From contig JAEOSI010000143.1 in the NCBI GenBank assembly GCA_016840425.1, positions 1 to 6,120 of the forward strand: a stretch of 6,120 bases of DNA. Reading direction: 5' to 3'. The position numbers were made by a program, and so were the translations under genes. The stretch comes from Candidatus Wukongarchaeum yapensis. GTDB taxonomy: Archaea > Asgardarchaeota > Wukongarchaeia > Wukongarchaeales > Wukongarchaeaceae. The notes under the pieces are model-generated. The model searched no databases, was not told the DNA's origin, and worked only from the letters and a program-made list of their open reading frames with translations. Shown here piece after piece: positions 2,218 through 5,587 of this stretch (its first letter is position 1; every line of letters begins with the position of its first letter).

Positions 2218-3522
2218 ATGAGTCCTAGTCCTTTTGGTGACTATTTCTTTAACGAATGGTGTATTCCTTATTTTATTGCCTTTTTCGTCAATTTTTTCAT
2301 TGCTTGGCTTTTGTTTTTTAAGGCTCGAAAAGAGGAACATGTTCAATTATATATTCTAACGGAGTTCTTCGTGGCGCTTCTGTGTTTTAGTGTGGCATTG
2401 GCTACGTGTAGTTTGGATTCTGATACTTGGCTCTTTTGGATGGTCATTAATAGAGTCACGTCGCTCCTTGCGGTCACTACATTATTCCATTTTTCGTATG
2501 TATTTCTTTATCGGATAAATATATTCGAGGATCTTCGAGTGTTTTTGGTTCATTTGGTTCCTTTGTTTTATATCTCTGTTTTTTTAATAGATATAGACAT
2601 ATTGTATTCTAGTGTGTTGGAATCGGGTGGTTCGCCTTTCGGCCTTTTTGAAGCGGATATCGAAAGGTTTTCGCCCCCGTTCCTTTGGGGTTTTTTTGAC
2701 ATTTTTCTAGTTGTAATGTTGGTTTTTGCTGCTGTAAACTTTTTCAGAATGTTCAGGTCAGAGGATGTGGAGATAAGGTGGCGTTCGGCGTATTTTATTC
2801 TTGCGAGTTTAATTCCATTAATTTTTACGTGTATGGAGGATTTTTTGGAGGCGATATTCCCGGATTTTAACTTAAAATTGGATCTGGGCACAGTTTCTTT
2901 ATCGATAACTGGAGTCATAATCTCTATCGGTATTTTGAAGCATAGGTTGTTCGATATCGATTTAATTTTGCCAAAAAGTTTCTATTATATAACGACTGTT
3001 GTTGTTCTTGTTTGGGTTTTTATTTTGAGCGGGGAGTTGCTGGTTCGTTTTATTACGGGGGGTGAAGTGTCTATCTTGTCTCGTTTTGCTGCTGTTTTGT
3101 TTACGTTATTTCTTTTTTTCCCTGTTAGAGAAGTGGTAGGTGGGTTGACGACTAGGTTATTTCCGCGTGATTTTATCAGTAGGAGGCGTAAAAGCGGTTT
3201 GTCTAGCGGGGTTGCTTTAGAGATTTACAGGAAGCAGTTACAGTTAGCATGGGAGGGTGGGGAAATATCTGAAAAAGAGAGGAGGTTGTTAAACGATTTG
3301 AGGTTATCTTTAGGAATATCTGGTAAAGAGCATGAGAGGTTGGAGAGAGAATTAATCAGCGCGTTAGAGATTTACAAGAAGCAGCTTCAGTTAGCATTGG
3401 AGGGGGGGGAAATAACTGAAAAAGAGAAGATATTGTTAAAAAATTTGAGGTTATCTTTAGGAATTTCTGATAAGGAGCATGAGAGGTTGGAGAAAGAGAT
3501 AATTGGTATGAACGTTCAATAG
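2218..3522 (+). CDS. Polytopic membrane protein: HisKA_7TM-like sensor region plus 2 further TM helices and two C-terminal helical repeats; no kinase domain
   Basis: There are about 9 hydrophobic segments in aa ~16-303. 'IGILKHRLFDID' after TM7 and 'LFFPVR...TRLF' after TM9 resemble motifs of 7TM histidine-kinase N-terminal regions. No H-box or HATPase boxes follow. Confidence 0.85.
   Translation: MSPSPFGDYFFNEWCIPYFIAFFVNFFIAWLLFFKARKEEHVQLYILTEFFVALLCFSVALATCSLDSDTWLFWMVINRVTSLLAVTTLFHFSYVFLYRINIFEDLRVFLVHLVPLFYISVFLIDIDILYSSVLESGGSPFGLFEADIERFSPPFLWGFFDIFLVVMLVFAAVNFFRMFRSEDVEIRWRSAYFILASLIPLIFTCMEDFLEAIFPDFNLKLDLGTVSLSITGVIISIGILKHRLFDIDLILPKSFYYITTVVVLVWVFILSGELLVRFITGGEVSILSRFAAVLFTLFLFFPVREVVGGLTTRLFPRDFISRRRKSGLSSGVALEIYRKQLQLAWEGGEISEKERRLLNDLRLSLGISGKEHERLERELISALEIYKKQLQLALEGGEITEKEKILLKNLRLSLGISDKEHERLEKEIIGMNVQ
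3214..3507 (+). repeat. In-frame tandem duplication, 2 x 147 nt (2 x 49 aa)
   Basis: Unit 1 (3214-3360) is ALEIYRKQLQLAWEGGEISEKERRLLNDLRLSLGISGKEHERLERELIS. Unit 2 (3361-3507) is ALEIYKKQLQLALEGGEITEKEKILLKNLRLSLGISDKEHERLEKEIIG. They share 38/49 identical residues by hand count. Confidence 0.97.
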
Positions 3523-4426: not shown

Positions 4427-4549
4427 ATAAAACGAAGTTAAAGCGAGTGAACTACTCCCAGCTTTCGCAAGGGGCTTCCTGTTTCAACGACGGGATCATC
4501 ATTATTCATCCATCTCCACAGGCGTAAATTCGGACAGTCCCTGTCCTAC
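4427..4549 (-). ncRNA. Predicted TnpB omega-RNA (reRNA): ~103-nt scaffold (4549-4447) plus ~20-nt flank-derived guide
   Basis: Minus strand: GUA-GGACAG-GGA-CUGUCC-GAAUU-UACG-CCUGU-GGAGAUGGAU...AUCCCGUCGUUGAA-ACAGG-AAG-CCCCUUGC-GAAA-GCUGGGAG-U-AGUUC-AC. Visible pairings are the 5' stem GGACAG/CUGUCC, CCUGU/ACAGG, a pseudoknot GAAUU/AGUUC and a terminal GAAA-capped hairpin. This order matches my recollection of the ISDra2-type scaffold. Confidence 0.72.
4502..4549 (-). pseudogene. tnpB: Relic of the extreme 3' end of tnpB
   Basis: The minus strand translates to VGQGLSEFTPVEMDE*, matching the 'VGQGxPEFTPVE'-type TnpB C-terminal tail that overlaps the omega-RNA. The rest of the gene is absent. 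Confidence 0.7.
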
Positions 4550-4565
4550 TCTTCCATATTGTTAC

Positions 4566-4573
4566 TCTTATAA
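4566..4573 (-). promoter_or_regulatory. Candidate TATA box for the omega-RNA
   Basis: The minus strand reads TAATTATAAGAG, about 20-25 nt upstream of the first scaffold stem. BRE is not canonical, and TTATAA is palindromic, so direction is ambiguous. Confidence 0.35.
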
Positions 4574-4647
4574 TTACAAATAGTTTGTTATTATTTTTGT
4601 TGTTCGGCTTTCATCCCCCCCCAGCCGTCATAGGGGACTCCCGTCGA

Positions 4648-4664
4648 GAAAGTTAAAAATATAA
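4648..4664 (+). promoter_or_regulatory. Possible BRE-TATA for mrp
   Basis: GAAAG-TTAAAAATATAA lies upstream of an AGGTGG SD at 4714-4719. Confidence 0.35.
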
Positions 4665-4729: not shown

Positions 4730-5587
4730 TTGATGGATGAAATTAAAAGACGGGTTAGAGCTGAACGTATGAAAAAGGTTAAGGATAGAATGAGTAAAGT
4801 GAAGCATAAGATCGCTGTGATTAGTGGGAAGGGGGGCGTTGGCAAGAGCGTTGTCACTGTGAACCTTGCTATGGCTTTTGCGGTACGGGGTTATACTGAT
4901 AAAGTAGGTATCCTTGATACAGACATAACGGGTCCCTCTGTCCCTAAGATAATTGGTTTACAAGGGGAAAAGGTTGTATCTACTCCTGAACGCGAAATAG
5001 TTCCGGCAGTAGGTCCCTTAGGTATCAAGGTTGTATCTATGGCGCTTATGCTTGAAACTGAGGAAACACCGGTAATTTGGCGTGGTCCCTTAAAGGCGAG
5101 GGCAATCACTCAGCTTTTATCGGATGTTATTTGGGGTGAATTGGATTTTTTGTTTATAGATCTTCCCCCAGGAACTGGTGATGAGCCCTTGAGTATTATG
5201 CAACTCATACCGGATCTGGATGGGGTAGTAATAGTTACAATACCTTCAGAAGTTTCACAAATCGTTGTTAAAAAGGCAGTTACTTTTGCTAGACATTTGA
5301 AGGCTCCTATTATAGGCGTAATAGAAAATATGAGTGGTTTCATCTGCCCAAATTGCGGCAAAGAGATCGACATCTTCAAAAGAGGAGGAGGACAAAAAAT
5401 AGCCGAGGATATGAACATTCCGTTTCTGGGAAGGATCCCTATCGACCCTGAAATATGCGACTACTCTGATAAAGGTTTACCATTCGTAACTGAAAATAAA
5501 AATTCACCAGCAACAAAAGCTTTTATGGAAATTGTAAAAAAGATAGAAGAGTTCTTAAATCAAGAGAATGGAAAGCACATTGAATAA
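4730..5587 (+). CDS. mrp: Mrp/NBP35 (ApbC) family P-loop NTPase, Fe-S cluster carrier
   Basis: Motifs present: SGKGGVGKS deviant Walker A, DTDITGPS, IWRGP, DLPPGTGDE, VTIP, ENMS and the CPNC cluster-binding motif. Start is TTG 4730 or ATG 4733. Confidence 0.96.
   Translation: MMDEIKRRVRAERMKKVKDRMSKVKHKIAVISGKGGVGKSVVTVNLAMAFAVRGYTDKVGILDTDITGPSVPKIIGLQGEKVVSTPEREIVPAVGPLGIKVVSMALMLETEETPVIWRGPLKARAITQLLSDVIWGELDFLFIDLPPGTGDEPLSIMQLIPDLDGVVIVTIPSEVSQIVVKKAVTFARHLKAPIIGVIENMSGFICPNCGKEIDIFKRGGGQKIAEDMNIPFLGRIPIDPEICDYSDKGLPFVTENKNSPATKAFMEIVKKIEEFLNQENGKHIE

Follow-up and report, generated by a model that had tools for sequence, protein, structure and literature searches.

A protein-less IS200/IS605-type mini-element with an intact omega-RNA core in the Asgard archaeon Candidatus Wukongarchaeum yapensis

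The window, by which we mean the whole stretch of 6,120 nt that was analysed (positions 1 to 6,120 of contig JAEOSI010000143.1, assembly GCA_016840425.1, Candidatus Wukongarchaeum yapensis), contains a protein-less element of the IS200/IS605 type that is 206 bp long and lies at 4447-4652 on the minus strand. It sits in a divergent intergenic region, with a histone-fold ORF 3' of its right end and a gene for an Mrp/NUBPL-type ATPase on the other side. No ORF lies wholly inside the element and only 13 codons of a relic tnpB can be recognised in it; its content is a left end, an AT-rich spacer bearing TATA-like boxes, and the final 103 nt of tnpB. The features of the locus, in the order in which they are read on the minus strand, were as follows:

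4730-5587, plus strand: Mrp/NUBPL-type ATPase gene, neighbour across the divergent intergenic region
4653-4657, minus strand: TTTAA target and transposon-adjacent motif (TAM), in the flank outside the element and found 5' of the left ends of nearly all copies
4652, minus strand: C, first base of the element, directly after TTTAA
4604-4652, minus strand: left end (nhmmer match to the left-end profile, E 1.4e-15)
4551-4603, minus strand: AT-rich spacer with promoter-like boxes, as seen in an alignment of 7 close copies
4447-4549, minus strand: TnpB omega-RNA scaffold and right end (nhmmer E 1.2e-28 to the scaffold profile)
4532-4546, minus strand: stem 1, hairpin GGACAG-GGA-CTGTCC (6/6 pairs covary in the wide alignment; 98% paired in the copies of the same genome)
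within the scaffold, minus strand: central helix CCTG.../...CAGG
4527-4531 (GAATT) and 4449-4453 (AGTTC), minus strand: arms of a putative pseudoknot, able to pair
4493-4511, minus strand: shortened AU-rich stem-loop in place of the long CCGAGA-GAAA-TCTCGG stem of full-length copies
4475-4478, minus strand: GAAG guide tetranucleotide, preceding the right-end hairpin and predicting cleavage at TCNC by the IS608 rule
4454-4475, minus strand: imperfect subterminal hairpin of the right end, with strong covariation, serving as TnpA recognition hairpin and as last omega-RNA stem
4447-4450, minus strand: TCAC, final four bases and right cleavage site, straight after which copies diverge
4427-4446, minus strand: right flank, the would-be guide TCGCTTTAACTTCGTTTTAT, positioned by analogy with TnpB systems
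4226-4053, minus strand: histone-fold ORF, neighbour 3' of the right end of the element

We regard it as close to certain that 4447-4652 is a PATE-type IS200/IS605 derivative (PATE/MITE) with an intact omega-RNA core. A sequence-only reading made earlier had proposed a protein-less mini-transposon carrying an omega-RNA across 4427-4652, a span that equals exactly the element plus 20 nt of its right flank, and this proposal held up: the whole functional core is kept, sister copies are present, and both tnpA and tnpB occur elsewhere in the genome. The parts it had named (left end, spacer, a scaffold starting at V-G-Q-G, the stems and TCAC) all lie on the minus strand where it had placed them. 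Elsewhere in the window, 2218-3522 on the plus strand encodes a 434-aa membrane protein with an N-terminal 7TM domain of the histidine-kinase type, in which a kinase domain was not detected; the C-terminus of this protein carries a unit of ~45 aa (EIYKKQLQLA...LGIS.KEHERLE) twice.

Both boundaries of the element stand out from chance through the shared ends of its copies, the loose ends of metagenomic contigs and the paralogues of one sister copy. At the right boundary, where the element reads ...GGGAGTAGTTCAC and ends at 4447 on the minus strand, 26 aligned copies diverge exactly past TCAC, and Logan contigs from four metagenome studies show many differing loose ends precisely at 4446/4447, with a depth 10-40x higher across 4428-4559. 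At the left boundary, the decisive copy is one on contig C177 that interrupts a tnpB gene: once joined, the sequences on its two sides align to the uninterrupted paralogues on C61 and C212 free of gaps only if the cut is placed between TTTAA and the following C, so the insertion was precise and caused no target duplication. A boundary one base further in, after TTTAAC, was rejected on this same alignment. The left junction and TAM, which the sequence-only reading had left to be located, are therefore fixed by the copy alignments and the C177 paralogues together.

The left end itself consists of a stem ACTTTC/GGGAGT, a degenerate subterminal hairpin CCCC...GGGG whose top is lost, and then GATGAAAGCCGAAC. 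By the guide and cleavage rule of IS608, AAGT at a hairpin foot corresponds to cleavage at TTNA and GAAG to cleavage at TCNC. The tetranucleotides of our family, AAGT and GAAG, fit its cleavage sites TTAA and TCAC by this rule, and these sites lie 17 nt 5' of the foot of the left hairpin and 8 nt 3' of the foot of the right one. The family thus resembles IS608 of Helicobacter pylori, the reference for end recognition by TnpA (He et al. 2011, PMC3201880), in its asymmetric ends, with cleavage on the 5' side of the left hairpin at 17-19 nt and on the 3' side of the right one at 8-10 nt, in the guide tetranucleotides at the hairpin feet and in the lack of target duplication, but differs from it in target (TT(T)AA versus TTAC), in terminus (TCAC versus TCAA) and in having no tnpA inside the element.

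The scaffold starts at 4549 on the minus strand with GTAGGACAGGG (V-G-Q-G) and corresponds to the last ~34 relic codons of tnpB (VGQGLSEFTPVEM...) together with the right end; over its first 36 nt, at the 5' side, it shares 94% identity with full-length tnpB genes at their 3' ends. Measured from TAGGG to TCAC, the scaffold of full-length copies is 117 nt long and that of the mini-element 103 nt. All modelled scaffold pairs are intact in the window copy, and the three pairings emphasised by the sequence-only reading, namely the 5' stem, the CCTG/CAGG helix and GAATT/AGTTC, can all still form. The mismatches which that reading had noticed in the terminal hairpin are also real (C.A and T.T), but they are family-wide and not a mark of decay.

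Across 26 copies of the same genome, 95.5% of the alignment cells in stem 1, the central helix, stem 3, the right hairpin and the pseudoknot were paired, with a few double changes. Wider sampling became possible through a 24-nt core, AGGGACTRYCCGAATTTACGCCTG, which occurs exactly in contigs of Lachnospiraceae, Coprococcus, Tissierellia, Caldicoprobacter and Thermovorax (loci L075-L113) as well as of Hodarchaeota, Bathyarchaeota and Micrarchaeota, so that the TnpB/omega-RNA clade spans both domains. A covariance model recovered 51 scaffolds at loci bearing this core, from which 47 distinct sequences were analysed. In these archaeal and Firmicutes sequences, in an alignment that was fitted to the model, 27 of the 33 pairs change on both sides, which is the covariation that the earlier reading had suggested looking for; 94.8% of cells in the same model-fitted alignment were paired, the corresponding values being 78% in shuffles and 26-44% with a slid partner. 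The bacterial relatives from Firmicutes naturally have a short stem 3. The bases of the pseudoknot are invariant in the copies of the same genome, and in a few distant relatives changes are confined to the 3' arm, so the support for this interaction comes from homology. Folding the scaffold as a single RNA sequence gave z = -0.92, which is uninformative taken alone. An Rfam scan of the window gave a single match, to CrcZ at 4526-4600 on the minus strand; at 24.7 bits it falls far below the gathering score of 95 and was dismissed as spurious, arising from the A-rich spacer.

The retained stretch can be compared directly with ISDra2, for which the functional scaffold has been mapped to -116 to -1 and the region 5' of it found dispensable, and in which GAA (-105..-103) pairs with UUC (-5..-3) to form a pseudoknot (PMC10097598). 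Stem 3b of ISDra2 (-70 to -49) is disordered, and its deletion, in the variant called Trim2, improves activity (PMC10097598). The mini-element carries GAA at 4531-4529 and TTC at 4451-4449, in positions equivalent to the two ISDra2 pseudoknot arms, and the sole part of its scaffold that has been shortened is at the position of the dispensable stem 3b. The retained stretch therefore corresponds to the ISDra2 core with stem 3b shortened, and the deletion kept precisely the functional part, in agreement with the earlier proposal that it stopped just before the first stem of the scaffold. The full-length copies of the family resemble ISDra2 (Nakagawa et al. 2023, PMC10097598; PDB 8h1j/8bf8) in a scaffold of ~116-117 nt inside a dispensable C-terminal coding region, in the equivalent placement of the putative GAA/UUC pseudoknot and in a long, dispensable stem 3b; they differ in their TAM, which is TTTAA versus TTGAT in ISDra2, and in the local hairpin that forms stem 1 in our family. 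The mini-element is of natural origin but similar to the Trim1+Trim2 design made in the laboratory from ISDra2.

Upstream of the scaffold, the spacer carries the candidate promoter. Full-length elements have TTTATAA close behind the left end, ~30 nt ahead of the ATG of tnpB; in the main family of mini-elements, in a copy from a sister species (G001) and in a second protein-less type (C154/C144, described below), TTTATA stands 24-26 nt before the first structured nucleotide. At the usual archaeal TATA spacing, transcription would start within a few nucleotides of the scaffold. In the window copy the family TATA aligns to 4580-4575 on the minus strand and reads TTTGTA, and the spacer has received a 6-nt insertion, AACAAA. 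A second TATA-like word, TTATAAGA at 4573-4566 on the minus strand, lies 7 nt downstream of the family position; this is the box that the sequence-only reading had singled out, and it is present as described, but it is specific to this copy, and the position used by the family is the one that is mutated. From their sequence and spacing, the boxes of the spacer may act as a promoter. Among the sequencing runs listed for the locus none is recorded as RNA, and one metatranscriptome that shares 13% of the words is evidence neither for nor against transcription.

The genome from which the window comes (2.16 Mb in 277 contigs, 92% complete) contains at least 8 close copies of ~205 bp, 85-91% identical and all in unrelated flanks, sister copies of the kind that the sequence-only reading had suggested looking for. 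More diverged subfamilies were found on C201, C175 and C268, many additional matches cover the last ~117 nt only, and one similar mini-element was found in the sister species. The two protein partners whose absence would have counted against the earlier reading are both encoded elsewhere in the genome, which has ~31 hits to the TnpB zinc ribbon and one complete Y1 tnpA (Y1_Tnp domain on C70, E = 1e-40). Two TnpBs, on C59 and C137, are intact proteins of 397 aa with OrfB_IS605 and TNB domains and the D-E-D residues of RuvC, and that of C59 matches ISDra2 TnpB at E = 1e-43. Their ORFs run through the scaffold (...GQGLSEFTPVE... and ...GQGLSEFTPVEIEPLPREISASSVVE...) and stop ~18 nt before the right end. 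The sole complete tnpA belongs to an IS605 element with a TnpB of another family, and the right end of that element reads ...GAGTATGTCAG, not ...GAGTAGTTCAC; its ends are similar and not identical to those of the mini-element, so that this particular TnpA may plausibly mobilise the mini-element in trans. No full-length element with the left-end type of the mini-element (GATGAAAGCCGAAC) was found in this assembly, at its 92% completeness and 277 contigs, so the search for a direct parent came back empty.

Several related structures were seen in the same genome. A second protein-less type (C154:4354-4634, L013; C144:3474-3748, L021) has an extra structured domain of ~95 nt between TATA and scaffold, the stems of which differ between the two copies, the only ones available, by compensatory changes; the C154 scaffold gave a weak match to RAGATH-18 (E 0.018, below the gathering score). 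At C104:5105-5155 and C160:797-847 there are elements of ~50 bp in which the start of the left end leads straight into the right-end hairpin and TCAC, without a scaffold. They look as if the left and right hairpins, which are similar, had recombined, and the one on C160 lies 1.2 kb from a full mini-element with which it shares, in inverted orientation, 80 nt of its left flank. The GAAA loop of the left hairpin is itself a site of insertion for an element of ~270 bp with terminal inverted repeats (C253:10002-10271, C175:3570-3873 and C121 near 906), which has GAAA on both sides and has split the left ends of three mini-elements.

The two halves of the window copy are in very different states. 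Folded as single-stranded DNA, its left hairpin reached -6.2 kcal/mol with z = 0.05, no better than shuffles, against -11.4 kcal/mol and z = -2.8 for the consensus copy on C168, and its left guide tetranucleotide reads GAGT, not AAGT, giving one G.T in place of A.T. The left end carries ~10-12 substitutions relative to the family consensus; left end and spacer together differ from the consensus of the closest relatives by ~17 substitutions, the 6-nt insertion and one indel. The scaffold differs from consensus at 3 of 104 positions, all of them polymorphic sites and all compatible with pairing, so that divergence is 3% in the scaffold and ~17% in the left half. The first stem of the left end resembles the left-end subtypes of C144 and C154, which makes a chimera and a copy that decayed once constraint was relaxed equally likely explanations.

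Both junctions of the insertion are bridged by contigs of four DNA runs from four metagenome studies. In these contigs, of a kind that drops rare variants, no joint across 4446/4652 such as an empty-site allele would give was found. With a degraded left hairpin, a mutated family TATA and presence in four populations, the window copy is probably an old and poorly mobile insertion whose scaffold is still intact. In the sister species, a congener, the synteny breaks at ~4385, and a gene similar to isopropylmalate/isocitrate dehydrogenase stands in place of the Mrp gene, which makes an orthologous comparison of the empty site uninformative.

Searching the genome for the would-be guide next to TTTAA, with one mismatch allowed in the TAM, gave no other match with fewer than 3 mismatches, and thus no secondary target of the kind that the sequence-only reading had recommended seeking; the best matches elsewhere had 3 mismatches, mostly in the first 12 positions. 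In ISDra2, double mismatches in the first 12 guide positions abolish cleavage (PMC10097598). The guide therefore fits only the empty site of its own insertion, a result that homing would predict and a domesticated regulator would not. The two other observations on guides concern a sister copy and the flank itself. The guide of the C177 copy (C177:4059-4257) matches the paralogous tnpBs on C61 and C212 beside TTTAA with 2 mismatches, in the TAM-proximal part. The guide flank of the window copy holds, at 4434-4442 on the minus strand, TTTAA followed by CTTC, that is, the target motif and the first four bases of the left-end consensus, a pattern that an earlier element may have left behind or that may have arisen by chance where the DNA is AT-rich.

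Taken together, these features suggest how such an element arose and could persist. A single internal deletion removed nearly all of tnpB and fused the left end with its TATA region to the last ~100 nt, that is, to the omega-RNA scaffold running into the right end. A Y1 TnpA would move the product in trans as single-stranded DNA, and the internal promoter would yield an RNA of ~120 nt comprising the scaffold and ~16-20 nt of flank. TnpB from full-length sister elements would load this RNA and, once the element had been excised, cut the empty-site allele (TTTAA plus guide), upon which homologous repair would restore the element. The mini-element would in this way borrow both its transposase and its homing nuclease. 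Of the mechanisms considered, our analysis best supports homing by a TnpB that uses the RNA in trans, which we think fairly likely; the protection of its own insertion, one of two roles suggested by the sequence-only reading, fits the published homing model and the lack of other TAM-plus-guide targets.

The principal competitor is an inert relic, a piece of DNA still movable by TnpA, in which the scaffold was kept because the deletion chanced to end there and the RNA is either not made or not used. The right end itself requires its last 40-50 nt, all copies of the main family descend from one deletion, and scaffold-less hairpin fusions such as those on C104 and C160 exist. Within the young main family we saw no sign of purifying selection: its 23 scaffold substitutions fell at unpaired positions in 15 cases, kept a pair in 6 and broke one in 2, with 54 paired and 54 unpaired positions available, so that the excess of structure-preserving changes was not significant, and in the copies other than that of the window divergence was similar across left end, spacer and scaffold. 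Since the main family goes back to a single deletion, retention of the scaffold could in part be a founder effect. Against a relic, however, the retained stretch reaches ~60 nt beyond the right end that TnpA recognises and coincides with the ISDra2 core (PMC10097598). The entire scaffold is kept as well in independent derivatives (d_C5, the C154/C144 type and the G001 copy), where, judged from the 5' junctions or the TATA spacing, the structured RNA begins with it, and the spacing of 24-26 nt between TATA and scaffold recurs in separate lineages. The case for selective retention, weak inside the main family, is made by these independent derivatives, by the recurring TATA spacing and by the unequal halves of the window copy. 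We therefore consider an inert relic a serious alternative but an unlikely one.

The position of the window copy raises other readings. Lying between divergent genes with a TATA box facing the histone-fold ORF, and present in contigs of four studies, the insertion might matter for its promoter, either by reading out towards the histone-fold gene or by disturbing a divergent promoter shared with the Mrp/NUBPL gene. We think this very improbable: the right end is separated from the histone gene by a hairpin and a T6 run at ~4405-4366, this copy carries a mutated form of the family TATA, and the congener retains the upstream region of the histone gene to ~4385 without any element. A domesticated guide RNA, the other role raised by the sequence-only reading, would be an immobilised cassette with a fixed guide for a TnpB or its nuclease-dead derivative, used in regulation or defence in the manner of TldR. 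The degraded left end beside an intact scaffold and the apparent fixation of the insertion in four populations would suit it, but no TTTAA-adjacent match had fewer than 3 mismatches and those at 3 fell mostly in the seed, the matching TnpBs retain D-E-D, the guide is mere local flank as in every mobile copy, and the likeness of the left half to the C144/C154 subtypes offers a chimeric origin instead. This role found no support, and we judge it the remotest of the readings. Hardly more probable is an anchored guide-RNA gene, no longer a transposon, in which the decayed left end, the nearly unchanged scaffold and the fixed insertion would reflect selection on a guide acting in trans with TnpB; if true, it would show an RNA-guided function at an early stage of being retained by its Asgard host.

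Homing through a borrowed TnpB, the reading we prefer, places the family beside elements already described. PATEs encoding omega-RNAs have been noted for Geobacillus stearothermophilus (Meers et al. 2023, PMC10055086), and, according to PMC10691335, the stand-alone mobilised omega-RNAs of Altae-Tran et al. (2021), without effector or transposase, were found by experiment to act in trans. The concept is thus already published (Meers 2023; Altae-Tran 2021/2023). Like the Geobacillus PATEs, our family has no protein gene, has both subterminal hairpin ends and would depend on other elements for mobilisation in trans and for the TnpB that uses its omega-RNA; unlike them, it has an Asgard archaeal host, an archaeal-type TATA 24-26 nt before the family scaffold and a scaffold reduced to its minimal core with stem 3b shortened, and the window copy has a degraded left end. 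Like the stand-alone omega-RNAs as that account describes them, it is a guide-only locus beside effector-encoding loci in one genome and would be expected to function in trans; the partner here is a TnpB, and the family is known from its sequence, whereas trans action of the former was demonstrated experimentally.

New here are the host lineage, the fusion of a putative promoter to the scaffold and a natural 'Trim2-like' scaffold. These elements extend the guide-only derivatives of IS200/IS605 to Asgard archaea and reveal no new mechanism. They form a clear natural mini-element that keeps only the ends for TnpA and a putative promoter and guide scaffold for TnpB. The RNA they retain coincides with the ISDra2 core, and the part that was shortened with the stem that engineers delete to obtain better editing, which lends independent evolutionary support to the minimal omega-RNA design. 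The family also makes available for tests an archaeal scaffold that is compact and has TTTAA as its TAM.
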